In this document: positions 2,392-24,473 of the stretch, in pieces
How the letters are laid out: each line of letters starts with the position of its first letter
How positions within the stretch are numbered: position 1 is the first letter of the stretch
The notes under the pieces: model-generated
What the model saw: only the letters and a program-made list of their open reading frames with translations
Told to the model about the DNA's origin: nothing
The model's database searches: none
Position numbers and translations under genes: made by a program
Source: Micrococcus luteus NCTC 2665
Lineage (GTDB): Bacteria > Actinomycetota > Actinomycetes > Actinomycetales > Micrococcaceae
Reading direction: 5' to 3'
Length of the DNA: 32,000 bases
Assembly (NCBI RefSeq): GCF_000023205.1
Contig: NC_012803.1
Coordinates: 2,280,001-2,312,000, forward strand

Positions 2392-2403
2392 GCCCCACCC
2401 CCG

Positions 2404-2454
2404 CTTTCGTTCGGGAAACGGCGGCGTGTCCCGGCACTTTCGTTCGAGAAACGG
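2404..2454 (+). repeat. Repeat locus A: tandem dimer of the CTTTCGTTCGGGAAACGG family (units 2404-2421 and 2437-2454, period 33)
   Basis: CTTTCGTTCGGGAAACGG and CTTTCGTTCGAGAAACGG. Lies in the divergent trx/aroQ intergenic region, immediately upstream of the trx -35. Confidence 0.85.
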
Positions 2455-2506
2455 GTGCCTTCCACGCACTGTCGTGGCCGAGACGGGCGCCGTCGTCGTC
2501 GCTTCC

Positions 2507-3598: not shown

Positions 3599-3626
3599 TG
3601 AGCGCCGCGCGAGGGGCCTCGGCAGG

Positions 3627-5024
3627 TCAGTCGACGTCCTCGGCCGCCAGCTGGCCGCACGCGCCGTCGATCTCCTTGCCACGGGTGTCGCGCAGGGTGG
3701 TGGGGATGCCGGCGGCGTTGAGCCGGTCCACGAACTCGCGCGTCACGTCCTTCTCCGAGGCGGTCCAGATGGAGCCCGGCGTCGGGTTCAGCGGGATCGG
3801 GTTCACGTGCACCCAGCCCTTGCCCCGGGCGTTGAGCTTCTTGGCCAGCAGGTCGGCGCGCCACGCGTGGTCGTTCATGTCCTTGATGAGCGCGTACTCG
3901 ATGGACACCCGGCGGCCGGTGGCCACGAAGTAGTCGTACGCGGCGTCGATCGCCTCGTCCGCCTTCCAGCGCGAGTTCACGGGGATCAGCTCGTCGCGCA
4001 GCTCGTCGTCCGGCGCGTGCAGGGACAGCGCGAACGTCAGCGGCACGCCCTCCTCGGCCAGCTTCCGGATGGCCGGCACCAGGCCCACGGTGGACAGCGT
4101 GATGTTCCGCGCGGACATGCCCAGGCCCTCGGGCGAGGGGTCCACCATGCGGTGCACGGCGGCCATCACGCGCTTGTAGTTGGCCAGGGGCTCACCCATG
4201 CCCATGAACACGACGTTGGTGACGCGGTCGGCGTCGTGCCCGCCGTCCTTGCGCTTGCCGCCCAGTCCGCCCTGGGCGATCACCTGGTTGGCCAGCACGA
4301 TCTGCTCCACGATCTCCGCCGTGGACATGTTGCGGGTCAGCCCGGCCTGGCCCGTGGCGCAGAACGGGCAGTTCATGCCGCAGCCGGCCTGGCTGGACAC
4401 GCACAGCGTCACGCGGCCGGGGTACCGCATCAGCACGGACTCCACGAGCGCGCCGTCGAACAGCCGCCACAGGAACTTGATGGTGTCCCCGCGGTCGGTC
4501 TCCATGCGCCGTACCTCGGTGAGCAGCGGCGGGAAGAACGCCTCCGCGATCGCCTCCCGCTTGTCCCTGGGCAGGTCCGTCATCTGCTCCGGATCGGTGG
4601 TGTAGTGCTCGAAGTAGTGCACCGAGAGCTGCTTGGCGCGGAACGCCGGCAGCCCGATCTCCTTGGCCTTCTCCTGCCGCTCCTTCAGCGTGAGGTCGGC
4701 CAGGTGGGTGGGCGGCTGGGAGACGCGCGGCTGCTTGAACTGCAGCTGCGGTCGGCCGTCCGGGCCCATCGGCTGGGTCCAGCCCTCGGTCTTCGGCATC
4801 ACCTGGGGGCGCTCGGCGGTGGCGGCCTCGCGGCGCTTGGGCGCGGAGAGCTGGTGGCCGACGCCGGCGCGGCGCATGCGCTCTCGGTCCTCGGCGAGCT
4901 GGCGCGCCTCGGACTCGTCGATCAGGCCGCGCTCGGGGCGGCCGAGGGCCGGCTTGCCGGCGCGGTCCCTCTGGCGGTTCGGGGTGGGCTTCGATCCGGG
5001 GCGGCGGGGCTGGTAGTCAGACAT
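3627..5024 (-). CDS. rlmN: Radical SAM 23S rRNA/tRNA adenine-C2 methyltransferase RlmN, with a long basic N-terminal extension
   Basis: [19 protein letters not shown] is the CxxxCxxC radical-SAM cluster motif, and GMGEPLANY is also present. ATG 5024 has SD gggaga 9 nt upstream. The track ORF 3627..5813 is trimmed. Confidence 0.9.
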
Positions 5025-5889
5025 CGGCACCATTCTCCCAGACGGGGCGGACTTCGCGGCGGGTCGCCTCCACGTCGACGGCGCCGCGCGGATTCCGCGT
5101 CCGGGGCAGCCCCCGCAGGACCCAGCGGACGACGACGCTGCGCACCGTCGCCGGCAGCGGCCGGTACAGGGTGCGCGCCAGCCCCCAGAGGCGTGCCTCC
5201 CGGACGGAGTCCCGCCCAGTCCAGGACCAACCGAGGCCGGCGCGCACGCGGCCTGGGAGGAGACCGGCGGTGACGAACCGGGCCAGGGGCATAGCCGCCC
5301 GCAGCGGCGCGGGGACGCCCTGGCCGGAGAACAGGTCGGCGGCGACCCGCCGCGCGTCGTCCGTGACCTCGAGCCGGGCCACCCGGTCGTCCCAGTAGTC
5401 CGCGAACGCCGCGCGGTCGACCGGCCAGGCGGAGGCGGGGACCTCGAGGCTCGTGGCGAGCGGGGCGTACCCGCGGTAGAGGCGGTCGGCGTCCTCGGCG
5501 TCGAGGGCGCCCCACATCCGGCGGCGCACCTGCTCCCCCATCGCATAGAGGGTGGCGGCCACCCAGAGCTGGGCGTCCGGGTCGGCGGCGTCGTAGGGGT
5601 GGCCTCCGGCGTCGAGCCCGCGGACCGGGCGGTGCGCCGCCCGCACCCGGTCGACGACCGCGTCGCGCAACGGCGCGGCCTCGGGGAGGGTGACCGCGTA
5701 GATGTAGGCGAGCGTGTGGCGGAGCCGGCGCATCGGGTCCTCGGTGAACCGGGAGTGGACGGCGACGCCGGCCCCCACCGGCCGGTGCGCCACCTGGAGC
5801 AGGATCGCCGCACCGGCGCCGGCGAGGATCACGGCCTCGCGGGCGAGGGCGGCCGCGGAGGTCGGGGCGGAGTGGCGGTCGGGGCGCAT
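5017..5889 (-). CDS. DUF2236 / MpaB-family oxygenase-like protein
   Basis: Consistent coding frame. The sequence pattern ([24 protein letters not shown]...) resembles the MpaB/DUF2236 family. The 3' end overlaps the rlmN start by 8 nt. Start ATG 5889 is chosen over 5991. Confidence 0.65.
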
Positions 5890-5951: not shown

Positions 5952-6234
5952 GCTTCTGTTCATCTTGCTGTTCGCCTGCCGCTCGTGGCACCTCGATCCG
6001 AAAACCGCATGATTGCGCCGATTTCGCAGCATGCAGGCATGCGCGGCGGAGTGCCTCAGGTCACGTTGGTGAACACGGAGTTGCACCCTGGGAGGGAATC
6101 TGTAAACTTGTTCACAAGCAGTTCACCTAGCGTTTACGGAACGCGAGGTCGGGACTCCACCGAACTCATCACCCGCGGCCCCGCCGCGACGATCCGCCGG
6201 ACTCATGGTCCGGCAACCGAAGGAGGTGCTCACC

Positions 6235-6507
6235 GTGAGCATCAACACGACCAGCCACCACCTGCCCACCGCCCCGAGCCCCCTCATGCAGCGCCACGTG
6301 CTCCAGCGCGTCGAGGAGACCCTCCTCCGCCGCTTCGAGGGCACCGTCACCGCCGAGACCGTCCGCTCGGTCGTCCGCGAGGTCGTCGCCGACCTCAAGC
6401 GCGGCGCCCGCATCACCACCTTCCTGCCGGCCCTTGCCGAGCGCGAGGCCACCCGCCGCCTCCAGGCCGCGACGCCGGCCCACGAGGCCATGGCCGTCGC
6501 CGCCTGA
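6235..6507 (+). CDS. Small stand-alone protein paralogous to the N-terminal domain of the downstream LMW-phosphatase-like protein (three-helix-bundle-type domain)
   Basis: GTG 6235 is preceded by a strong SD gaaggagg. HVLQRVEETLLRRFEGTVTAETVRSVV...FLPALAEREATRRLQA aligns with HVLEREVGPLMARFPGVADEATVRQLL...MLPTTAVQHAASRLRA of the 8197..8964 product. Confidence 0.55.
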   Translation: MSINTTSHHLPTAPSPLMQRHVLQRVEETLLRRFEGTVTAETVRSVVREVVADLKRGARITTFLPALAEREATRRLQAATPAHEAMAVAA

Positions 6508-6586
6508 TCCCTCACATCGACGCGAAGACCCGTCGGCCCGCCCCGCGAGGGGCCGTGGCCGGCGGGTCTTCTCGCCTCCCAGGACG

Positions 6587-6743
6587 CTTTCGTTCGGGAA
6601 ACGGCGGGTGCCAGAACGCTTTCGTTCGGGAAACGGCGTGAACGCTCCGGGGCGCCGTTCCATCGCCGCCCACGCGAATCCGGCGTGCGGCGTCGTTTCC
6701 CACACGAAAGCACCGCGACACGCCGCCGTTTCCCGAACGAAAG
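6587..6743. repeat. Repeat locus B: two forward units (6587-6604, 6619-6636) and two inverted units (6693-6710, 6726-6743) of the CTTTCGTTCGGGAAACGG family
   Basis: The outer units are perfect reverse complements over 21 bp (CTTTCGTTCGGGAAACGGCGG). The locus lies between convergent stops 6507 (+) and 6755 (-). Confidence 0.9.
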
Positions 6744-6754
6744 CGCGGGGGGCC

Positions 6755-7999
6755 TCAGTCCTCGGCGACGCCCAGCGCTCGGCGCATCGGCAGGAACTTG
6801 GCCCGGATCTCCGTGACCTCCTCCTCGGGCACCGCTCCCGGGACCATCCCGCCCCCGGCCTGCAGCCGCACCCCGCCGGGCACCTGCTGGCCACAGCGCA
6901 GCGCCAGGGCGATCTCGCCGTCGCCGTCCTGGTCCAGCCACCCGACCGGCCCGGCGTAGCGGCCGCGGTCCACGGGCTCGACCTCCGCGATCACCCGCAC
7001 CGCGTCCGGCGTGGGGGTCCCGCCGACGGCCGCCGTCGGATGCAGCGCGGCCACCACGTCCAGCACGGTCCCCCGCCCGTCCCGCAGCCGGCCGCGCACG
7101 GACGTGGCCAGGTGGTGCACGTTCGGCAGGGTCAGGACGGTGGGCACGGGGTCGTCGTCGGCAAGGTCGACGACGGGCGCCAGCGCGTCCAGCACCGACC
7201 GCGCGGCCCAGCGGTGCTCCTCCGCCAGCCGCGGATCGGAGGCCAGACGCTCGCGCAGCGCGGCGTCCTCCACCTCGTCCGCGCCGCGCGGCATGGACCC
7301 CGCCAGCACCCGCGAGCCCACGAGCCCCGCGTGCCGCGTGGCGAGGACCTCGGGCGTGGCGCCCAGCAGCCCGCCGACGGCGAACACCCAGGTCTGCGGG
7401 TACTCGCGGCGCAGGGCCCCGATCGCCCGCCACAGGTCGGCGTCGTCCGCGGGGACGGTCATCGTGCGGCTGATCACGACCTTCGCCAGCTCCCCGCCCG
7501 AGTCGGCCATCCGCGTCAGCAGCTCGCGCACCCCGGCCGCGTAGCCGACGTCGTCCCAGGCGCGGTCGGCGACGTCGGCGGGCAGGGGCACCGCACCGTC
7601 GGCCAGCAGCCGGGCTCCGCGGTCCGCGGCGACGGCGGCTGCGAGCGCGTCCGCGTCCACGTGCTGGGCCACGTCCCGCACGCCGGACGGCGTGGCGCGG
7701 CGCAGATCCGCGGGGATGCGCAGGACCGCGGGCTCGGGCGAGTCATCGGCGAAGGTCGAGGAGATCCAGCCCCGCAGCGAGGCCGTCGGGTCCGGTCGCC
7801 CGGCGACGGCGGCCTGCCACAGCGCGGAGAGCCGGCGGAGCCGGTCGGTGCCGTCCAGGAGCACGGTCCAGCCGCCCTCGCCCCGCCACGCGTCGTCCCC
7901 GTGCGCCCACAGCACCGCCCGGGCGAACGGGGGGACGGCGGCCTCGGGGGTCCCGGTCGCGGGGGTGCCGAGGTCCGGGAGCAGGGAGCGGGCAGACAT
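6755..7999 (-). CDS. Isochorismate synthase (chorismate-binding enzyme, MenF/EntC type)
   Basis: C-terminal chorismate-binding signatures: LHPTAAVGGTP, DRGRYAGPVGW, and GGGMVPGAVPEEEVTEIRAKF. The start is ATG 7999 (SD gggagag 10 nt upstream) or ATG 8008. Confidence 0.8.
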   Translation of the reverse strand: MSARSLLPDLGTPATGTPEAAVPPFARAVLWAHGDDAWRGEGGWTVLLDGTDRLRRLSALWQAAVAGRPDPTASLRGWISSTFADDSPEPAVLRIPADLRRATPSGVRDVAQHVDADALAAAVAADRGARLLADGAVPLPADVADRAWDDVGYAAGVRELLTRMADSGGELAKVVISRTMTVPADDADLWRAIGALRREYPQTWVFAVGGLLGATPEVLATRHAGLVGSRVLAGSMPRGADEVEDAALRERLASDPRLAEEHRWAARSVLDALAPVVDLADDDPVPTVLTLPNVHHLATSVRGRLRDGRGTVLDVVAALHPTAAVGGTPTPDAVRVIAEVEPVDRGRYAGPVGWLDQDGDGEIALALRCGQQVPGGVRLQAGGGMVPGAVPEEEVTEIRAKFLPMRRALGVAED

Positions 8000-8196
8000 G
8001 GCCCCCATTCTCTCCCACCTCGGCGGACCCCGCTCCGGGCCCGGGCCTCGGCCGCCGCCCCGACGGCGGGGGCGAGCGGCGTCGTCGTGCGCGGAGGGAT
8101 CCCGTCAAGGCTTGCGCCGGCACACCCGACGTCGCAGGGTGGGGGCACCCGTTCACCTCGCGTTCAACCGACCGCCTTCCCCGGAGGACTCGCACC

Positions 8197-9004: not shown

Positions 9005-9385
9005 ATGAGCACGGACAGCACGACGACGGCGCCCGCCGCCGCCTCGCCCCTTCCGTCCGCCGCGGCGGACGCCTGCGACGGCCACCGGCCCCCGCACGAG
9101 GTCCACCGGGACAAGGCCAAGCACCTGGCGCGACTGCGCCGCATCGAGGGGCAGGTGCGCGGCCTCCACCGCATGGTGGACGAGGACGTGTACTGCATCG
9201 ACGTCCTCACGCAGATCGCCGCCGTCACGAAGGCGCTGCAGTCCCTCAGCCTGAACCTCACCTCGGAGCACCTGCGTCACTGCGTGGCCGAGGCCGCGGT
9301 GCAGGCCGAGGCGGAAGGCCGCACCGAGCTCATCGACGAGAAGGTCGCCGAGGCGACGGCCGCCCTCGGCCGCCTGCTGCGCTGA
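9005..9385 (+). CDS. csoR: Copper-sensing transcriptional repressor, CsoR family
   Basis: CsoR/DUF156 pattern HLARLRRIEGQVRGLHRMVDEDVYCIDVLTQIAAV...EHLRHCV, giving the C-H-C copper ligand set. The TTG at 8969 used by the track is rejected in favour of ATG 9005. Confidence 0.85.
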   Translation: MSTDSTTTAPAAASPLPSAAADACDGHRPPHEVHRDKAKHLARLRRIEGQVRGLHRMVDEDVYCIDVLTQIAAVTKALQSLSLNLTSEHLRHCVAEAAVQAEAEGRTELIDEKVAEATAALGRLLR

Positions 9386-9424
9386 CCGGCGCCGTCGCTC
9401 CCCCCACCCCGACAGGAGTTCGAG

Positions 9425-9643
9425 ATGACCACCACCGACCTGAAGATCACCGGCATGACCTGCGGCCACTGCGTCGCCTCCGTCCGGGAGGAGCTCGGCG
9501 AGATCGCCGGCGTCTCCGCCGTGGACGTGGACCTGAACGCCGGGGGCGTGTCCACCGCCACCGTCACCTCCGAGGGCCCCCTCGACCCCGCCGCCGCGCG
9601 CGCCGCCGTCGAGGAGGCCGGCTACACGCTGGTGGAGGCCTGA
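9425..9643 (+). CDS. copZ: Copper chaperone CopZ (HMA domain)
   Basis: 72 aa with GMTCGHC metal-binding motif. SD aggag. Confidence 0.9.
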   Translation: MTTTDLKITGMTCGHCVASVREELGEIAGVSAVDVDLNAGGVSTATVTSEGPLDPAAARAAVEEAGYTLVEA

Positions 9644-9647
9644 CCCC

Positions 9648-12107
9648 ATGACCCACCCCGCCTCCTCCACCCCGGCCGGCCCGCCGGCCGGGACCACCCG
9701 CCGCGTCGACCTGGACGTCACCGGCATGACCTGCGCCTCGTGCGTGGGCCGCGTCGAGCGCAAGCTGGGCAAGCTCGAGGGCGTCACGGCGTCCGTGAAC
9801 CTGCCGCTCGAGCAGGCCACCGTCACCGCGCCCGCCGGCGTCTCGGACGAGGAGCTCGTGGCCGCCGTCGAGAAGGCCGGGTACGGCGCCACCGTGCGCC
9901 GTCCCGCCCCGCCGGCCGGACACGCCGGACACGCCGGGCACGCGCACACCTCCGAGCACGGCGAGGAGCATGCCGCGGACCATGACGGCGTGGACCACCA
10001 CGACCACATGGCCCACGGTCCGAGTGAGGACATGCTCAAGCCGCGCCTGATCGGCGCGGCGGTGCTGACGGTGCCGCTCGTGCTGATCTCCATGGTCCCG
10101 GCGCTGCAGTTCCCGCACTGGGGCTGGGTCGCGTTCGCCCTGGCGGCGCCCGTGGCGCTGTGGGCGGCGTGGCCGTTCCACTCGGCGGCGTTCCGCGCGG
10201 CCCGGCACGGCTCGTCCACGATGGACACCCTCGTGTCCCTGGGCGTGCTCGTCTCCTTCTCCTTCTCGGCCGTGGAGCTGATCCTGGCGCCGGACATGAC
10301 CGCCCACGTGGGCGGGACCATGGCGGAGATGGCCCACCACAGCCTGTACTTCGAGGCGGCCGCGGTCATCACCACGTTCCTGCTGCTGGGCCGCTGGCTC
10401 GAGGCCCGCGCCAAGCGTGAGGCCGGCGCCGCACTGCGGGCCCTCCTGGACCTGGGCGCGGCCCAGGCCACCCTCTACGACCCCGAGACCCACGACGAGC
10501 GCACGGTGCCCGCCGAGTCCCTCGCGCCGGGCGACGTCGTGCTGATCCGCCCCGGCGAGAAGGTGCCCACGGACGCCGAGGTGCTCGAGGGCACCTCGGC
10601 CGTGGACGCCTCCCTGCTCACCGGCGAGTCCGTGCCCGTGGAGGTCGGCCCCGGGGACGCCCTCACCGGCGCCACCCTGAACACCTCGGGCCGGCTCGTG
10701 GCCCGCGCGACGCGGGTCGGCTCGGACACGACGCTCGCCCAGATGGGACGGCTCGTCTCCGAGGCGCAGACCGGCAAGGCCCGCGTGGCCCGGCTGGCCG
10801 ACCGCATCTCCGCCGTGTTCGTGCCGATCGTGCTCGGGATCGCCGTGCTGACCTTCGCGGTGTGGATGCTGGTGACCGGCGACCTGCCGTCCGCGCTGCG
10901 CGCCGGCGTGGCCGTGCTCGTGATCGCGTGCCCGTGCGCCCTCGGTCTGGCGACCCCGGTCGGCCTGCTGGCCGGCACCGGCCGCGCCGCGCAGCTGGGC
11001 ATCCTCATCCGCGGCCCCGAGGTGCTCGAGGACTCGCGCACCGTGGACACGATCGTGCTGGACAAGACCGGCACCGTGACCGAGGGCCGCATGGCGCTGG
11101 CGGACGTGCTCGTCCTCGACCCCGCTTTCGTGGCCGAAACGGGCGCCTCCCGGAGCGCTTTCGTTGACGAAACGGCGCCGGACCAGGCCGCCGACGTCCT
11201 GCTGACCCTGGCGGCCGCCGTCGAGCGCGGGTCCGAGCACCCGATCGCCCGCGCGATCGTGGCCGGCGCCGAGGAGCGCGGCCTGACCGTGCCCGGCGTG
11301 GCGGACTTCGCCTCCACGGCCGGCGGCGGCGTGTCCGGGCTGGTCGCCCTCCCCCACGACGACGGCGCCCTCGGCTCCGGCGCGCACGGCGCCGCCGGCC
11401 CGGATCCGGTCCGCGTGGCCGTCGGCCGCGGCTCCGTCCTCGAGACCGCCCTCGACGGCGGCATCCTCGCCGAGCACCGGGCCGCGTTCGAGGCCGCGGA
11501 GCAGGCCGGCGCCACAGCCGTGTGGGTCGCGGTCGGCGGCCGCGTGGCGGGCGTCCTGTCCGTCCGGGACACCGTGAAGGACACCTCCGCCGACGCGATC
11601 GCCCGCCTGCGGCAGATGGGCCTGCGCCCGCTGCTGGTGACCGGCGACAACGCCGCCGTCGCCGCCCAGGTGGCGGAGGCCGTCGGGATCCCGGCCGCGG
11701 ACGTGGTGTCCGGCGTGCGCCCCGAGGACAAGGTGGACGTGGTGACGCGCCTGCAGTCCGAGGGCGCCGTGGTGGCCATGGTGGGCGACGGCGTCAACGA
11801 CGCCCCGGCGCTCGCCGCGGCGGACATGGGCATCGCCATGGGCTCGGGGACGGACGTGGCCCGCGAGGCCGCGCAGATCACCGTGATGGGCGACGACCTG
11901 CACCAGGTGGTCCAGGCGCTCGACCTGAGCCGCCGCACCCTGGGGATCATCCGGATGAACCTGTTCTGGGCGTTCCTCTACAACGTGCTCGGCATCCCGG
12001 TCGCGGCCCTGGGCCTGCTCAACCCGATGATCGCCGGCGGCGCGATGGCGGCCTCGAGCGTGCTCGTGGTGCTGAACTCGCTGCGGCTCACCCGCTACGC
12101 GCGCTGA
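9648..12107 (+). CDS. copA: Copper-translocating P1B-type ATPase
   Basis: N-terminal HMA GMTCASC, TM6 CPCALGLATP, phosphorylation site DKTGTVT, and hinge GDGVNDAPAL. It follows csoR-copZ. Confidence 0.95.
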   Translation: MTHPASSTPAGPPAGTTRRVDLDVTGMTCASCVGRVERKLGKLEGVTASVNLPLEQATVTAPAGVSDEELVAAVEKAGYGATVRRPAPPAGHAGHAGHAHTSEHGEEHAADHDGVDHHDHMAHGPSEDMLKPRLIGAAVLTVPLVLISMVPALQFPHWGWVAFALAAPVALWAAWPFHSAAFRAARHGSSTMDTLVSLGVLVSFSFSAVELILAPDMTAHVGGTMAEMAHHSLYFEAAAVITTFLLLGRWLEARAKREAGAALRALLDLGAAQATLYDPETHDERTVPAESLAPGDVVLIRPGEKVPTDAEVLEGTSAVDASLLTGESVPVEVGPGDALTGATLNTSGRLVARATRVGSDTTLAQMGRLVSEAQTGKARVARLADRISAVFVPIVLGIAVLTFAVWMLVTGDLPSALRAGVAVLVIACPCALGLATPVGLLAGTGRAAQLGILIRGPEVLEDSRTVDTIVLDKTGTVTEGRMALADVLVLDPAFVAETGASRSAFVDETAPDQAADVLLTLAAAVERGSEHPIARAIVAGAEERGLTVPGVADFASTAGGGVSGLVALPHDDGALGSGAHGAAGPDPVRVAVGRGSVLETALDGGILAEHRAAFEAAEQAGATAVWVAVGGRVAGVLSVRDTVKDTSADAIARLRQMGLRPLLVTGDNAAVAAQVAEAVGIPAADVVSGVRPEDKVDVVTRLQSEGAVVAMVGDGVNDAPALAAADMGIAMGSGTDVAREAAQITVMGDDLHQVVQALDLSRRTLGIIRMNLFWAFLYNVLGIPVAALGLLNPMIAGGAMAASSVLVVLNSLRLTRYAR
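11125..11175 (+). repeat. Repeat locus C: tandem dimer of the CTTTCG..GAAACGG family inside the copA coding sequence (units 11125-11142 and 11158-11175, period 33)
   Basis: CTTTCGTGGCCGAAACGG matches the intergenic consensus at 14/18 positions and CTTTCGTTGACGAAACGG at 15/18. The 33-bp phasing is the same. The units translate in frame as AFVAETGA..AFVDETAP. Confidence 0.75.
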
Positions 12108-12678: not shown

Positions 12679-13233
12679 ATGAGCACCGAGCCGACCCCCT
12701 CGTCCGCCGCCCCCGAGACCGAGCCCGCCGCGCCGTCGTCGTCCGGGCTGCCGCAGGCCGCCCCGCAGGCGGCGTGGCCCGAGCGCGTGGAGACCGGCGA
12801 GCACCAGGTGTCCTACCGGGTCACCGTGGCCGCGCCGGCGCACGAGCTGTGGGCGATGCTCGCGGACCCGCACCGCCATCACGAGGCGGACGGGTCCGGG
12901 ACCGTGCGGCCGAAGGTGAGCGGGCCGCACCGGCTGGCCGTGGGCGACCGGTTCCGCGTGGCCATGCGGAAGTACGGGGTGCCGTACACGATGCCGCTGA
13001 CCGCCACCGCCGTGGACGAGGACGAGCTCGTGGAGTGGGCCCACCCGGGCGGACATCGGTGGCGCTGGGCGTTCCGAGACAACGGGGACGGCACCACCGA
13101 GGTCACCGAGACCTTCGACTACTCGTGGGCCCGGCCGGCCGTGCGCCGCGCGTACGAGCTGCTGCGGGTGCCGGCGGACAACGGGCGGGGCATCCAGTCG
13201 AGCCTCACGCGGCTGGCGGGCCGCCACCTCTGA
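12679..13233 (+). CDS. SRPBCC (polyketide cyclase/dehydrase-like) family protein with a Pro/Ser/Ala-rich N-terminus
   Basis: Size and pattern (YRVTVAAPAHELWAMLADP...GDRF...EWAH...W.W.F...GDGTTEVTETFDYS) are typical of SRPBCC ligand-binding proteins. The track ORF is trimmed to ATG 12679. Confidence 0.7.
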   Translation: MSTEPTPSSAAPETEPAAPSSSGLPQAAPQAAWPERVETGEHQVSYRVTVAAPAHELWAMLADPHRHHEADGSGTVRPKVSGPHRLAVGDRFRVAMRKYGVPYTMPLTATAVDEDELVEWAHPGGHRWRWAFRDNGDGTTEVTETFDYSWARPAVRRAYELLRVPADNGRGIQSSLTRLAGRHL

Positions 13234-13251
13234 ACCGACCGCGTCTCCGCA

Positions 13252-13362
13252 CTTTCGTTCGGGAAACGGCGGCGTGTCGGGCACTTTCGTTCGGGAAACG
13301 GCGGCCCTCACGCCGTTTCTCGAACGAAAACGCGCTGGGGACCGCCGTTTCCCGAACGAAAG
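13252..13362. repeat. Repeat locus D: two forward units (13252-13269, 13284-13301) and two inverted units (13313-13330, 13345-13362) of the CTTTCGTTCGGGAAACGG family
   Basis: Both forward units are identical to the consensus. The inverted units read CCGTTTCTCGAACGAAAA and CCGTTTCCCGAACGAAAG. The locus lies between convergent stops 13233 (+) and 13378 (-). Confidence 0.9.
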
Positions 13363-13377
13363 CGGGGGGTGCGGGGG

Positions 13378-13695
13378 TCAGACGGCGGACCAGTGGGTCG
13401 CGGCCGGCAGCTGCGCCAGGTGCGGGGTGACGAGCGCACGCCACGCGAGGAACGAGTCGGACTCGCGGAAGGCCACGGTGTGGTCCTCGAGCGTGCGCCA
13501 GCCGATCAGCAGCCGGTAGCGCGCCGGGTCCTCCACCTGCCGGGACAGCGCGAAGGACGTCGCGCCCCCGTCCCGGAACAGCGGCTCGGCCTCGGCGACG
13601 GCGGCCTCGAACGCCGCCTCCGCCCCCGCGGCCACGTGCAGCTCCACCGACTCGACGACCGGCCCGGCCGTCGTCGCGTCCTGCCCGACGCTCAT
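13378..13695 (-). CDS. Antibiotic-biosynthesis-monooxygenase (ABM) domain protein
   Basis: 105 aa with a ferredoxin-like ABM pattern (VELHVAAGAEAAFEAAV..A.PLF....G..S..L.R..EDP.RY.LLI.W.TLEDH). The start overlaps the upstream stop (ATGA). Confidence 0.7.
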   Translation of the reverse strand: MSVGQDATTAGPVVESVELHVAAGAEAAFEAAVAEAEPLFRDGGATSFALSRQVEDPARYRLLIGWRTLEDHTVAFRESDSFLAWRALVTPHLAQLPAATHWSAV

Positions 13696-22594: not shown

Positions 22595-23383
22595 ATGCTC
22601 TCCGCGCCGACGCTCACCCGCCTCGCCTCCCTGGCCGCGTTCCTGAACACCGCCCCCGGCCTGCGGGGCGGTCAGCCGGCGGACGAGCGGTTCACCGCCG
22701 CCACGCAGCTGCCCTCCCTCGTCCCTGAACTCCAGGAGGACGAGGTCCGCCTCCGCCTGGCCGCCGCCGCGGCCGTGCGCGGCCGCGAGCTCCGCGGCCG
22801 TCTGGCCGAGGTCTGGGCCCTCGCCGCCGTGGACGAGGCGGCCGCCGTGGAGCGCGTGAACGCCCTCCTCGCCGCGGCCGGGCCGCTGCGGCTGACGGCC
22901 GGGGGCGACGTCGTCGGGCTGGCCCCGGCACAGGTCCCCGCCGACGCGGTCGAGCGGCTGGCCGCGATGGCCGCCCTCGCGCTGGCGGAGACCGCGATGG
23001 ACGGCGAGCTGACCCGCCTGCGCGTGTGCGAGGGCGAGGACTGCGAGAACGCGCTCGTGGACGCCAGCCGGAACCGGTCCAAGCGCTTCTGCGACGAGGC
23101 CAACTGCGCCAACCGCACCCACGTGCGCTCCTACCGGGCACGCCTGGCCGAGGCGGCGGAGGCCGCACCCGCGACGGATCCGGCCGGGCCGGCCGGGCCG
23201 GAGGAGGCGGAGGCGCCGGAGGCCGTCGTGGACTCCGAGGCCGCCGGGGGCGACGAGCCCCGCCAGGAGACCGAGAAGGAGAAGAAGGAGCGCAAGAAGG
23301 CGGAGAAGAAGGCGGAGAAGAAGGCCCGCAAGAAGGCCGAGAAGAAGTCCGGCAAGAAGAAGTCGGACAAGAAGAAGGACTGA
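22595..23383 (+). CDS. ABATE/CGNR zinc-finger family protein with a Lys-rich C-terminal tail
   Basis: RVCEGEDCENALVDASRNRSKRFCDEANCANRTHVRSYRARL is the zf-CGNR pattern with CANR in place of CGNR. The tail reads KEKKERKKAEKKAEKKARKKAEKKSGKKKSDKKKD. Confidence 0.8.
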   Translation: MLSAPTLTRLASLAAFLNTAPGLRGGQPADERFTAATQLPSLVPELQEDEVRLRLAAAAAVRGRELRGRLAEVWALAAVDEAAAVERVNALLAAAGPLRLTAGGDVVGLAPAQVPADAVERLAAMAALALAETAMDGELTRLRVCEGEDCENALVDASRNRSKRFCDEANCANRTHVRSYRARLAEAAEAAPATDPAGPAGPEEAEAPEAVVDSEAAGGDEPRQETEKEKKERKKAEKKAEKKARKKAEKKSGKKKSDKKKD

Positions 23384-23464: not shown

Positions 23465-23470
23465 CCTAGC
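23465..23470. repeat. Target-site duplication CCTAGC (left copy)
   Basis: Identical hexamer immediately flanking both IS ends. It matches the NCTAGN target described for IS481. Confidence 0.75.
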
Positions 23471-24473
23471 TGTAGGAGGTCATGACGTTGTTGACTCGGG
23501 CCGGGGCCAGTGAGGCCGGAGGAGCGTCTCCGCAGGAGGTATGAGGCCGATGGTAGTTGTAGTGGTTCACCCACACTGCCAACGCCTCACGCCGAGCTGT
23601 CTCTGAGGTATACGGGCGGGCGTAGAGGACCTCATCGACCATCAGCCGGTTGTAGCGTTCGACCTTCCCGTTATGGCGGGGCGTGTATGGGCGGATCCGG
23701 TGGTGCCGGCCCCCGAGCGAGACCACCTTGGCGGTGAACTCCGCGGCCCGATAGTTGTTCCCGTTGTCCGTGACCACCCGGTCCACGGTGATGCCGTGGG
23801 CGGCGAAGAACGCCCTCGCCCGGCAGAAGAACCCGATCGTGGTCACCGCTTTCTCATCCTCCAACGCCTCGGTGTACGCCAGGCGGGTGAACCCGTCGAT
23901 CGCCGAGTGCAGGTAGGTGTACCCGACCCGCCGGCCAGGCCCGCGCTTGGCTGCTCGCGCGTTCTCGGAGTCCCGTCCGTGAGCACGCCAGCCGCCCCCG
24001 TCAGGGATCTTCCCGATCTTCTTCACGTCCAGGTGCACCATGTGCCCCGGCCCTCTCGCGGTGATCTTCTGCGGTCGTTGGCGCAGGTCCTCACCCGTGG
24101 GCGCGAGGTCTGGCAACCGGGAGATGCCCAGCCGGTGCAGCCACCTGCCCACCGTTCGGAGGCACACCCGGTGGCCTTCAGAGACGAGGTGGTGATGGAT
24201 CCGGCGGGCCGACCACTTGCGCTCCCGCCGCAGGGCGTGGATCTGGGCGACCAGGACCGGATCGAGCTGGGCAGGTGAACGGTGCGGCCGGCTGGGCAGG
24301 TCCTGAAGACCGGCTTCTCCCTGGGCGCGGTAGCGGGCCACCCAGGTGGCCACCGTGGGGCGGCTGACGCGGAACTCGGCGGCCACGTGCGCTTGTGGGA
24401 TCCCGTCGTTCAGGTGGCGTTGGACCATCCTGAGACGGCCGGTGGGAGTCAGGGGTGCATTAGCGTGAGTCAT
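23466..24473 (-). CDS. IS481-family DDE transposase
   Basis: N-terminal HTH (MTHANAPLTPTGRLRMVQRHL...VSRPTVATWVARY). rve core with HLDVKK, VVTDNGNNY and NGKVERYN. The stop TAG lies in the left target duplication. Confidence 0.9.
   Translation of the reverse strand: MTHANAPLTPTGRLRMVQRHLNDGIPQAHVAAEFRVSRPTVATWVARYRAQGEAGLQDLPSRPHRSPAQLDPVLVAQIHALRRERKWSARRIHHHLVSEGHRVCLRTVGRWLHRLGISRLPDLAPTGEDLRQRPQKITARGPGHMVHLDVKKIGKIPDGGGWRAHGRDSENARAAKRGPGRRVGYTYLHSAIDGFTRLAYTEALEDEKAVTTIGFFCRARAFFAAHGITVDRVVTDNGNNYRAAEFTAKVVSLGGRHHRIRPYTPRHNGKVERYNRLMVDEVLYARPYTSETARREALAVWVNHYNYHRPHTSCGDAPPASLAPARVNNVMTSYS

Follow-up and report, generated by a model that had tools for sequence, protein, structure and literature searches.

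The segment 13252-13362 of the 32,000-nucleotide stretch of Micrococcus luteus NCTC 2665 analyzed here (the window) lies between two convergent genes, encoding an SRPBCC/Polyketide_cyc2 protein (12679-13233) and an ABM monooxygenase (13378-13695, minus strand). It holds two forward and two inverted copies of a short repeat that recurs elsewhere in the window. Matches to its core, CTTTCGTTCGGGAAACGG, at no more than 3 mismatches occur 11 times, against 0.01 expected from shuffled sequences. A 12th unit, at 11125, has 4 mismatches to this core, and a profile search of the window (nhmmer --max) returned exactly these 12 units and no others. The initial annotation had reported 12 monomers at 4 loci; all were recovered at their positions, together with a degenerate 13th unit (2469-2486), in register, 32 nt past the one at 2437. 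In total, the window carries 13 monomers in 6 same-strand arrays at 4 loci, with units starting at 2404/2437 (plus), 6587/6619 (plus), 6693/6726 (minus), 11125/11158 (plus), 13252/13284 (plus), and 13313/13345 (minus). The period of 32-33 bp given for them also held, all start-to-start spacings being 32 or 33 nt. The features are as follows.

2399-2486, plus strand: array 1, with three cores (2404-2421, 2437-2454, and a degenerate one, CTGTCGTGGCCGAGACGG, at 2469-2486), placed between the divergently oriented aroQ (2519-2971; Pfam) and a thioredoxin gene that ends at 1874 on the minus strand; sense to aroQ, 33 nt upstream of its ATG.
3600-3617, minus strand: empty site, the array being absent in the window and in sequences L129 and L111 and present in L083 and L092.
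6581-6640, plus strand: array 2a, with two cores (6587-6604 and 6619-6636; period 32), 79 nt past the TGA of a gene in the same orientation (6205-6507; phosphatase-like N domain), a separate GC hairpin (6519-6573) lying between this gene and the array.
6687-6749, minus strand: array 2b, with core 6726-6743, a degenerate core 6693-6710, period 33, and linker CGGCGTGTCGCGGTG; first core 11 nt past the TGA of a gene for a chorismate-binding enzyme (6755-8008, minus strand; co-oriented).
6575-6754, no strand assigned: arrays 2a and 2b taken together, with convergent genes on either side, a predicted long imperfect hairpin.
11120-11180, plus strand: array 3, with degenerate cores 11125-11142 (CTTTCGTGGCCGAAACGG) and 11158-11175 (CTTTCGTTGACGAAACGG), period 33, inside copA (9648-12107).
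13247-13307, plus strand: array 4a, with two exact units (cores 13252-13269 and 13284-13301), period 32, and linker CGGCGTGTCGGGCA; first core 18 nt past the TGA of the co-oriented SRPBCC/Polyketide_cyc2 gene.
13310-13366, minus strand: array 4b, with cores 13345-13362 and 13313-13330, period 32, and leader TGACCCCCGCACCCCCCG; first core 15 nt past the TGA of the co-oriented ABM monooxygenase gene.
13234-13377, no strand assigned: composite of arrays 4a and 4b, filling the entire convergent intergenic region, a predicted long imperfect hairpin on either strand.

Each unit comprises a near-invariant core of 18-21 nt, with the consensus (G)C(R)CTTTCGTTCG(G/A)GAAACGG, and a variable linker of 12-15 nt. 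Units within an array are direct repeats, and the period across sequences was 32 nt (n = 62) or 33 nt (n = 73), with almost no other values. The linker CGGCGTGTC, initially described as frequent, occurs in 3 of the 6 window arrays, and the internal inverted repeats (TTTC-N6-GAAA and CGTT-N5-AACG) noted with it are present in the sequence. The statement that units always come as tandem dimers applies to the window but not elsewhere, where arrays carry from 1 to 6 units, all on the same strand.

A dispersed, non-random family of 32-33-nt repeats is thereby confirmed as real, and it is apparently undescribed. No Rfam family reached the gathering threshold across the window, a scan by E value of 13200-13400 gave only subthreshold, miRNA-like matches to the long hairpin, and the core CTTTCGTTCGGGAAACGG was not found in the literature searched, which agrees with the initial view that this is not a described family. 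A CRISPR array, for which we required repeats of at least 23 nt and unique spacers of at least 26 nt, usually with cas genes, was rejected: the cores and linkers are too short, linkers repeat within an array, and the window contains no cas genes. Resemblances to LexA, GlnR, and ParB/Noc-like sites, to a mimic of the tRNA T-arm, to a GGA loop of the CsrA type, and to hammerhead motifs were discarded as well, the sequence fitting none of them.

Arrays and neighboring genes

The three settings first noted for the repeats, i.e., 3' ends, a divergent promoter region, and a coding sequence, were all seen in the window. Across the sequences analyzed, the gap between the stop codon and the first core peaked at 7-16 nt and was at most 24 nt in 32 of 47 cases. 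A frequent layout at the start of an array was TGA-CCCCCC-core, and TGACCCC was found at about half of the array-linked stops, compared with 9.5% of all stops. An enrichment of TGA itself was rejected: all 47 array-linked stops are TGA, but so are 96% of all stops. Among arrays in co-directional gene contexts, 11 were sense and 2 antisense, and in convergent contexts 22 arrays were nearer to their own gene and 6 nearer to the other one. The paired sites that we saw were all ordered plus then minus. Where two genes converge, each often has an array of its own, which makes the intergenic region a palindrome of about 110-180 nt. Some arrays were found in 5' or divergent regions (locus 1 of the window and the permease gene of L041).

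These positions bear on whether the core could be the operator of a transcription factor governing a local regulon in the window. The partial dyad TTTC-N6-GAAA of the core and the array in a divergent promoter region would fit, but the arrays lie mostly past stop codons or between convergent genes and not at promoters, the genes that flank them are functionally unrelated, and dozens of sites occur elsewhere in the genome. The positional data effectively refute this explanation, to which we attach almost no probability, and they bear out the initial judgment that the repeats are not a conventional operator.

M. luteus is capable of natural transformation, and uptake sequences are often arranged as inverted pairs in terminators, with further copies inside genes. 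Competence, inverted pairs at gene ends, copies in coding regions, and a genus-specific, highly conserved core would all suit a DNA uptake sequence comparable to the Neisseria DUS or the Haemophilus USS. However, DUS and USS are 9-12-mers that occur singly, about once per kb, and on both strands, whereas the core here has 18-21 nt, and its units form phased tandem arrays, oriented with genes and their transcription, at the far lower density of roughly one array per 5-10 kb. We accordingly rejected membership in this class, which we regard as very improbable.

A further explanation is that the units are DNA sites bound by an abundant chromosomal protein (such as gyrase or a nucleoid-associated protein) or by a polar roadblock protein, placed where convergent transcription piles up supercoils. 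The conserved feature is indeed an 18-21-bp sequence and not a structure, the period of 32-33 bp corresponds to about three helical turns, which would place the sites on one face of the DNA, and the regions between convergent genes are enriched in arrays, which often form symmetric pairs there. There is also the precedent of E. coli, whose BIMEs bind gyrase and IHF. Nevertheless, the relief of supercoils requires neither the 11:2 orientation with transcription nor the abutment on stop codons, canonical units bound as roadblocks in coding regions would block or perturb transcription, and no candidate protein was identified. This explanation seems to us improbable.

The initial annotation also stated that the elements encode no protein, which is right for the dispersed, non-coding family but not for the copA units, whose in-frame translation (AFVAETGASRS-AFVDETAPDQA) is placed between the DKTGT and GSEHP motifs of CopA. 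Arrays can persist in-frame as 11-residue repeats because of the 33-nt period, and such repeats were found in copA, in a methyltransferase of the tRNA_U5-meth_tr family (uracil-5 RNA), in SelO, and in an ABC exporter. At the copA site, M. lacusdianchii has about 2 decayed units, and Micrococcus sp. SUG2227 has 7 (77 aa), with inverted units next to the sense units. A synthetic protein query, built from translations of the repeat frames and used to search for in-frame insertions, gave no match reaching an E value of 0.001. Sense units inside the essential-looking coding regions of the methyltransferase and the ABC exporter are canonical, and the arrays are therefore not strong unconditional terminators.

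Predicted hairpins and gene ends

Facing dimers had been proposed to form long imperfect hairpins, and the predicted folds, with z scores from −7.8 to −9.7, support this. The composite at 6575-6754 folds at −113.6 kcal/mol (z = −7.8; 0 of 200 shuffles as stable), and that at 13234-13377 folds at −101.7 kcal/mol on the plus strand (z = −9.7) and −92.2 kcal/mol on the minus strand (z = −9.2). The arms of the 4a/4b inverted pair are 57 nt long and 79% complementary. The hairpin thus stands, but not the notion of a single palindromic unit: the facing dimers are the two 3' arrays of convergent genes, and the two arms carry different linkers.

Single units were predicted to fold slightly better in the sense than in the antisense orientation, both in M. 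luteus (−13.65 versus −12.76 kcal/mol; P = 0.019) and in M. lylae (−15.0 versus −11.8 kcal/mol; P = 4e−5). The 5-bp stem CGUU/AACG plus U.G is nearly universal among units, with U.G pairs at stem positions 4-18 and 2-20. The SUG2227 variant CUCCCGUU-CGAGA-AACGGGAG gives a stem of 8 bp without mismatches, and the predicted fold of its array has a z score of −4.9. This stem is limited to SUG2227, the lower stem being mismatched in M. luteus and M. lylae, and single M. luteus arrays showed no unusual stability (z about 0). A unit-specific covariation of the flanks was rejected, as chimeras with swapped flanks fold as well as real units (P = 0.3 to 0.8); there is little true covariation because most stem pairs are invariant. 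A scan for intrinsic terminators found nothing at any array, and no T run follows the arrays, which are not classical intrinsic terminators because they have no U-tract. Hairpins without a U-tract do not terminate the mycobacterial RNA polymerase, according to PMC3993855.

Taking position and folding together, we favor, with moderate confidence, a REP/BIME-, MIRU-, and TRIT-like interspersed repeat that would act on the RNA, either as a hairpin at its 3' end or as an insulator. The arrays would be transcribed as the 3' untranslated end of the mRNA, where each sense-strand unit would form a small CGUU-N5-AACG hairpin, extended by U.G pairs, and convergent array pairs a very long one. Such hairpins may block exonucleases at the 3' end or insulate convergent transcription units from one another. 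In E. coli, REP sequences reportedly stabilize the upstream mRNA, as Newbury et al. are said to have found in 1987. Several arrays are accompanied by a separate GC hairpin, and the array may therefore be dispensable for 3'-end formation.

High-GC Actinobacteria have few canonical terminators, and their gene ends are poorly understood. M. luteus has an unusual Rho factor, a small genome, and is transformable. An oriented repeat that hugs stop codons is a testable candidate for a 3'-end signal in this species. The strong conservation of the core suggests that it could be recognized by a dedicated protein factor. A bolder version, which we consider unlikely, is that the core is the site of a dedicated Micrococcus factor (protein or RNA) for 3'-end formation or termination at stop codons, and that the same or another factor copies and homogenizes the units. 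If true, this would be a gene-end punctuation not yet described in bacteria, mobile, oriented with transcription, and able to colonize genes in-frame, and its mechanism would be one that has so far only been hypothesized for the mycobacterial TRITs.

Distribution and spread of the repeats

The initial annotation had made the novelty of the family depend on copies beyond the window, and these are frequent: at least 32 distinct array sites were found in non-redundant M. luteus metagenome DNA totaling about 266 kb, and arrays are also present in M. lylae, M. lacusdianchii, and other Micrococcus species. In an exact 18-mer scan of a genome collection, on which the range outside Micrococcus rests, multiple copies occurred only in Micrococcus, and as far as searched the family is specific to this genus. 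Counts from the genome collection were rejected as a census, since M. luteus MAW843 gave one stretch while 97% identical strains had more than 30 sites. Matches labeled 'Carideicomes' and 'Streptomyces' were rejected as evidence of a wider range; these short contigs are M. luteus contaminants. Arrays of this kind break short-read assemblies, and they can expose M. luteus contamination in assemblies of other organisms. A search for aldehyde dehydrogenase homologs in sister genera returned only proteins that were 98-100% identical, from Micrococcus where named.

The number of units differs between strains at the same site (2/3, 3/4/6, and 1/2/3), which makes the arrays possible typing markers. 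The presence/absence polymorphism between strains that the initial annotation proposed to look for was found at 3600-3617, downstream of a radical-SAM gene (3627-5024, minus strand), where L083 and L092 carry a segment of ~98 bp with two CTTTCGTTGACGAAACGG-type units and a GC hairpin. This whole-array indel is bounded by a 5-nt GAGCG repeat, which may be a microhomology. No consistent target duplication was found in this indel or in the aligned dimer copies. The latter end exactly at the cores, with unrelated flanks and neither terminal inverted repeats nor target duplications, which matches the initial remark that IS-like ends are missing. Identical core-CGGCGTGTC-core dimers of 50 nt were found at 10 or more sites with unrelated flanks. 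Orthologous arrays carry species-specific core variants, a pattern that we read from the sequences as concerted evolution. Under the 3'-end reading, units would be spread and homogenized by some process of recombination or transposition, and array length would change by slippage. The arrays may also mediate chromosomal rearrangements.

Much of this variation would also be expected of selfish, non-autonomous mobile DNA without a host function (REPIN-, MITE-, or minisatellite-like), whose units are copied by a trans-acting enzyme or by gene conversion and survive where insertion is harmless, namely, at convergent gene ends and in-frame in surface loops of proteins. Besides the whole-array polymorphism with its 5-nt boundary, the strain-variable unit number, the identical dimers, and the concerted evolution of orthologous arrays, this explanation accounts for the enrichment in convergent "safe" intergenic regions, for the inverted units that arose beside sense units inside the SUG2227 copA, for combinations of flanks that suggest array-to-array recombination, and for in-frame insertions in four unrelated genes, as in the Rickettsia palindromic elements (PMC10969869). 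On the other hand, the units have neither terminal inverted repeats nor a consistent target duplication, and no transposase linked to the arrays was found (the only one in the window is of the IS481 type and single-copy). Plasmids and phages gave no copies either: a BLAST search of them with locus 4 returned no match, and a pattern scan of viral contigs gave 6 single chance matches, in contigs of 43-60% GC, and no arrays. Moreover, the core is near-invariant across species despite diverged linkers and flanks, and neutral survival alone predicts neither the tight stop-codon abutment nor the orientation with transcription. We regard a purely selfish origin as a rather unlikely account.

Relation to known bacterial repeats

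The initial annotation compared the elements to REP/BIME, Correia-type, and MITE-like elements. The first likeness is supported, and the latter two are not, given the lack of terminal inverted repeats and of a consistent target duplication; the family stands nearer to REP/BIME, MIRU, and TRIT than to MITEs of the Correia type. Lacking terminal inverted repeats, target duplications, U-tracts, and GTAG, the repeats are therefore not MITEs, canonical REPs, or intrinsic terminators. They are a new relative of the REP/BIME-, MIRU-, and TRIT-type repeats, with a function that is inferred.

Like REP/BIME, the Micrococcus repeats are short (about 20-40 nt), genus-specific, highly repeated, and extragenic, occur in clusters at 3' ends and convergent intergenic sites, may form hairpins, and evolve in concert. 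Protection of mRNA 3' ends and binding of DNA-binding proteins have been proposed for REP/BIME. However, REP units alternate or are inverted, whereas Micrococcus units are direct tandem repeats, and an inverted layout arises only from two separate arrays with different linkers. The M. luteus hairpin is weak, its conserved part is the apical core and its flanks are variable, and the species consensus has no GTAG or GTGG at the 5' end of the unit. No RAYT gene, which in REP/BIME systems is flanked by the repeats, was seen at the array loci examined. The Micrococcus arrays also differ in being phased at 32-33 nt, oriented with transcription, abutting on stop codons, and present in-frame in genes.

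MIRUs are oriented with their flanking genes and touch stop codons, and the Micrococcus arrays are likewise gene-oriented and stop-abutting. Both are dispersed, head-to-tail repeats of Actinobacteria with strain-variable copy number (PMC2734929), the MIRU/VNTR minisatellites of Mycobacterium tuberculosis having been described by Supply et al. (1997, 2000; summarized in PMC2734929). By description, the two differ in unit length (32-33 nt in Micrococcus versus 40-100 nt in Mycobacterium), in the conserved core and variable linker of the Micrococcus units, in location (mostly at convergent gene ends, while MIRUs lie inside operons), and in the palindromic pairing of Micrococcus arrays.

The TRIT, of which 147 copies conserved in sequence and structure were described, is restricted to Mycobacterium (Gardner et al., 2011; PMC3152330). 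It has a narrow distribution at the stop codon, and its authors proposed an extra factor (PMC3152330); TRITs overlap few of the mapped transcript 3' ends in M. tuberculosis. The Micrococcus repeat resembles it in genus restriction, strong sequence conservation, a copy number of around a hundred, a very narrow placement next to stop codons, lack of a U-tract, and a suspected dedicated factor, and both are often bidirectional because they are palindromic. However, their sequences differ, and the TRIT is a single conserved hairpin that overlaps the coding sequence at its end (about −8), whereas the Micrococcus element is a tandem array that starts about +7 to +16 after the stop. The family thus offers a second, independent system for comparison with the mycobacterial TRITs and MIRUs.

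In the pneumococcal BOX element, the internal boxB modules are arranged in tandem and vary in number. The neisserial Correia elements and the ERIC elements, both co-transcribed, change the processing of mRNA. BOX and Correia elements have terminal modules or terminal inverted repeats with target duplications, none of which was seen in Micrococcus, and Correia elements differ further in carrying promoters. Similar to the in-frame copies are the Rickettsia palindromic elements, small repeats inserted in-frame in unrelated genes, where they add a peptide without destroying the gene (PMC10969869). Unlike the 33-nt tandem units, these are palindromes that span about 100-150 bp, and they are not concentrated after stop codons. 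The in-frame arrays of copA, SelO, the RNA methyltransferase, and the ABC exporter provide a clean case, outside Rickettsia, of peptides added by repeats to conserved proteins.

Repeat units and gene context in the window

The 18-nt core CTTTCGTTCGGGAAACGG matched the 32-kb window 11 times with at most three mismatches, against 0.01 matches expected from dinucleotide-preserving shuffles, and a twelfth unit, at 11125, carried four mismatches to the core. An unfiltered search with a profile built from these 12 units recovered exactly the same 12 in the window (G+C content, 73.7%) and no others. The spacing between unit starts was 32 or 33 nt. Inspection of the sequence confirmed all the repeat coordinates of the initial annotation, and its 12 monomers were all recovered by the profile search; the total is nevertheless 13, because of a degenerate unit at 2469-2486 (CTGTCGTGGCCGAGACGG) lying in register, 32 nt past the second unit of locus 1, and similar to GTGGCCGAAAC, a variant present in copA. 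The same-strand runs of units (arrays) are placed as follows.

Repeat loci in the window
Locus 1, 2399-2486: array between the divergent thioredoxin gene and aroQ, ending 33 nt upstream of the aroQ start codon
Locus 2, 6575-6754: two arrays (2a and 2b) between the convergent genes 6205-6507 (+) and 6755-8008 (-, chorismate-binding)
Locus 3, 11120-11180: array within copA (9648-12107)
Locus 4, 13234-13377: two arrays (4a and 4b) filling the spacer between the convergent genes 12679-13233 (+, SRPBCC) and 13378-13695 (-, ABM)

The ABM protein had exact matches, with identical neighbours, on the complete M. luteus chromosomes LS483396.1 and CP035298.1, whose gene calls were consistent with Pfam scans of the window. 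The copA gene belongs to a csoR-copZ-copA copper-resistance operon (9005-12107). Between the stop codon of gene 6205-6507 and array 2a lies a strong GC-rich inverted repeat (6519-6573, GAAGACCCGTCGGCC...GGCCGGCGGGTCTTC), distinct from the array and terminator-like, without a T-run; comparable additional hairpins were seen beside arrays in three other Micrococcus loci (L083, L110, and L144). Upstream of the same gene, at 6130-6147 (-), a weak core-like sequence, CGCGTTCCGTAAACGC, is followed by TAGGTGAAC. It resembles CCGTTAGGTGAACGG...GGTGAAC, found upstream of the homologous gene in Micrococcus sp. SUG2227 (L045, ~515-540), and is probably a different regulatory motif rather than a member of the repeat family.

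Unit anatomy, distribution, and classification

Each unit consists of a near-invariant core and a variable linker. The core-to-core distance was 32 nt (n = 62) or 33 nt (n = 73), with four exceptions, and linkers were alike within one array and unlike between arrays. The linker CGGCGTGTC, already noted in the initial annotation, marks one subfamily, in which a 50-nt core-linker-core dimer occurs at 10 or more sites with similarity stopping precisely at the outer core edges; the dimer copies compared showed neither terminal inverted repeats nor target duplication. The core presented small, consistent differences between species, its consensus being gCgcTTTCGTTCGGGAAACGGCGg in M. luteus, CgCTccCGTTcgaGAAACGGGAGg in SUG2227, and CgCTTTCGTTCGGGAAAC.GTCG.GTccc in M. 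lylae. Arrays at orthologous sites (locus 4, the copA site, and a methyltransferase site) carried the variant of their own species, and the repeat copies therefore evolve in concert. This concerted change, together with a core that stays near-invariant while linkers and flanks diverge, calls for a putative sequence-specific partner or for active copying or conversion.

When one genome per species was searched for the exact pattern, Micrococcus was the only genus to give multiple hits (M. lylae, M. lacusdianchii, M. luteus, and two further species), and the single hits elsewhere were chance matches. Hits assigned to "Carideicomes alvinocaridis" and "Streptomyces sp." do not widen this range, since their contigs are 95 to 100% identical to M. 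luteus DNA and are contaminants. These contigs (L005, L013, L015, and L053 from C. alvinocaridis SCR17; L043 and L063 from Streptomyces sp. NPDC052101/052107) are short (350 to 2200 bp), and their breaks fall at the repeat. The species scan, which was not exhaustive, returned a single stretch of the complete M. luteus MAW843 chromosome (L007), with the match right at the locus boundary; the scan counts are unusable as copy numbers, because contigs 97% identical to MAW843 have more than 30 sites. Copies beyond the window were also abundant in metagenomes, where a pattern of two exact cores separated by 12 to 18 nt matched at least 119 stretches. In 80 metagenome loci (659 kb, ~266 kb non-redundant) we counted at least 152 arrays and 326 units at no fewer than 32 distinct M. 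luteus sites. Extrapolated roughly to a 2.5-Mb genome, this corresponds to anything from dozens to a few hundred arrays, a figure biased upward because the sampled loci were chosen for their array content. No match was found in plasmids and phages or, for the window, in Rfam, and the literature search returned no description of the core sequence or of such repeats in Micrococcus, in agreement with the initial view that this was not a described family. The family is real, dense, genus-specific, and apparently undescribed.

The resemblance to REP/BIME, Correia-type, or MITE-like elements proposed initially is right as to the broad class, small bacterial interspersed repeats, and fails for the canonical REP/BIME and MITE types; the element fits the definition of no described family. 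Its units are direct rather than inverted, lack GTAG, and have a weak palindrome (REP/BIME), terminal inverted repeats and target duplication are missing (MITE), and there is no U-tract (intrinsic terminator); CRISPR and uptake sequences were also excluded. The closest analogues are the MIRU minisatellites, which are also tandem, dispersed, and variable in number and likewise belong to an actinobacterium (PMC2734929), the Rickettsia palindromic elements, which parallel the in-frame copies (PMC10969869), and the Mycobacterium TRIT motif, with 147 copies, a conserved sequence, a narrow stop-codon peak, restriction to the genus, and a suspected extra factor (PMC3152330). The kind of element is known and its architecture new.

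Arrays inside genes and variation between strains

The elements had been thought to encode no protein, which does not hold for copA, where the array is read in frame within the nucleotide-binding domain, at a point between the DKTGT (phosphorylation) and GSEHP motifs. This insertion site is occupied in three species, with lengths of 22 to 77 residues. Other genes also carry in-frame arrays, each flanked on both sides or surrounded by Pfam domains, and the in-gene period is 33 nt, i.e., 11 codons, without exception.

In-frame arrays in Micrococcus genes
copA, M. luteus: two units
copA, M. lacusdianchii: about two units, decayed
copA, SUG2227: four sense and three antisense units, 77 residues in total
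tRNA_U5-meth_tr family methyltransferase, M. luteus and SUG2227, same site: repeat LSFEKRx
ABC exporter, between membrane and ATPase domains: repeat FVRETAPS
SelO, M. lylae: three copies of AFVRETVESPD

The number of units at one site varied from strain to strain (2/3, 3/4/6, and 1/2/3). Presence/absence polymorphism, suggested initially as worth looking for, was found at ~3612, where a ~98-bp segment (two units and a GC hairpin), present downstream of a radical-SAM gene in two M. luteus strains, is absent from the window and from two others; the indel edges are a 5-nt GAGCG repeat. Between species, the locus 2 arrays are wholly absent from SUG2227, and locus 4 has 2+1 units in M. lacusdianchii versus 2+2 in the window. 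These dynamics and the in-gene copies lend good support to the main rival explanation, that the repeats are purely selfish DNA persisting at harmless sites.

One 50-nt dimer array was seen on four metagenome contigs (L100, ~5818-5868; L116, ~5309-5360; L082, 957-1008; L157, 7232-7282) in all four flank combinations (X-P, Y-Q, Y-P, and X-Q). Such combinations are expected, and may have arisen, from an inversion or a reciprocal recombination event involving two arrays in different M. luteus strains; mis-assembly at the 50-nt repeat is the alternative.

Position, structure, and possible role of the arrays

Where the flanking genes are co-directional, the array was sense in 11 cases and antisense in 2, counted over the distinct M. 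luteus sites together with those of the other species; the two antisense cases seem to reflect missed gene calls. Of the arrays in convergent spacers, 22 were closer to the stop codon of their co-oriented gene and 6 were closer to the other gene, most of these 6 being ties in very short spacers. Paired arrays in convergent regions always ran forward then inverted on inspection (~9 M. luteus sites and 3 in other species). Arrays therefore lie downstream of the gene to which they belong, the exceptions being sense arrays in the 5' region at locus 1 and at a permease gene of SUG2227. The distance from stop codon to first core peaked at 7 to 16 nt and was at most 24 nt in 32 of 47 cases; the intervening stretch is typically a C-run (e.g., TGACCCCCC), and about half of the array-linked stops have a TGACCCC context, versus 9.5% of all stops. 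That TGA was the stop in 47/47 cases is uninformative, since it makes up 96% of stops in these sequences (TGA 344/359, TAG 15/359, and no TAA at confidently called gene ends in the Micrococcus loci examined). Selfish persistence alone leaves this orientation and stop-codon proximity unexplained.

About 90 to 99% of 137 non-redundant units have, on the sense strand, a CGUU-N5-AACG hairpin extended by a U.G pair, and the pairs of this hairpin hardly vary. The next three stem pairs are perfect in SUG2227 (CUCCCGUU-CGAGA-AACGGGAG), U.G, mismatch, and U.G in M. luteus, and largely mismatched in M. lylae. Single M. luteus arrays folded like shuffles (z about 0; SUG2227 array, z = -4.9), and units had no folding advantage over chimeras with flanks exchanged between units (P = 0.3 to 0.8). 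Compared with their reverse complements, sense units had a slight folding advantage in M. luteus (P = 0.019) and M. lylae (P = 4e-5) and none in SUG2227. The folding and pair tests thus provide modest evidence of a sense-strand RNA hairpin, and covariation is not strong; true conservation lies in the sequence of the core. Composites of a forward and an inverted array between convergent genes form very long hairpins on either strand (-92 to -114 kcal/mol; z = -7.8 to -9.7). No T-run followed the arrays, and a terminator scan detected no terminator at any of them.

Three features suggest that the arrays have a role in the transcript, or are at least constrained there: they are oriented with transcription, they abut stop codons, and their sense-strand hairpin contains U.G pairs. 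Other observations argue against strong autonomous termination by the arrays: genes accommodate canonical sense units, arrays often have a separate GC hairpin alongside, the mycobacterial polymerase is reported to require a U-tract at intrinsic terminators (PMC3993855), and TRITs coincide with few mapped 3' ends. The most likely role of the arrays would be that of a 3'-end barrier or insulator: the structure would block exonucleases and insulate convergent genes, and the long composite hairpin would be its strongest form. The family bears on bacterial genome architecture and actinobacterial transcription.

Elsewhere in the window, an IS481-family transposase gene (23466-24473, -; LZ_Tnp_IS481 and rve; 335 aa) gave exact-sequence matches at one genomic place only (four contigs, all of the same region). 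A zf-CGNR protein (22595-23383) has a Lys/Glu-rich low-complexity C-terminal tail, EKEKKERKKAEKKAEKKARKKAEKKSGKKKSDKKKD, encoded at 23266-23383 (+) by a short imperfect 9- to 15-nt repeat.
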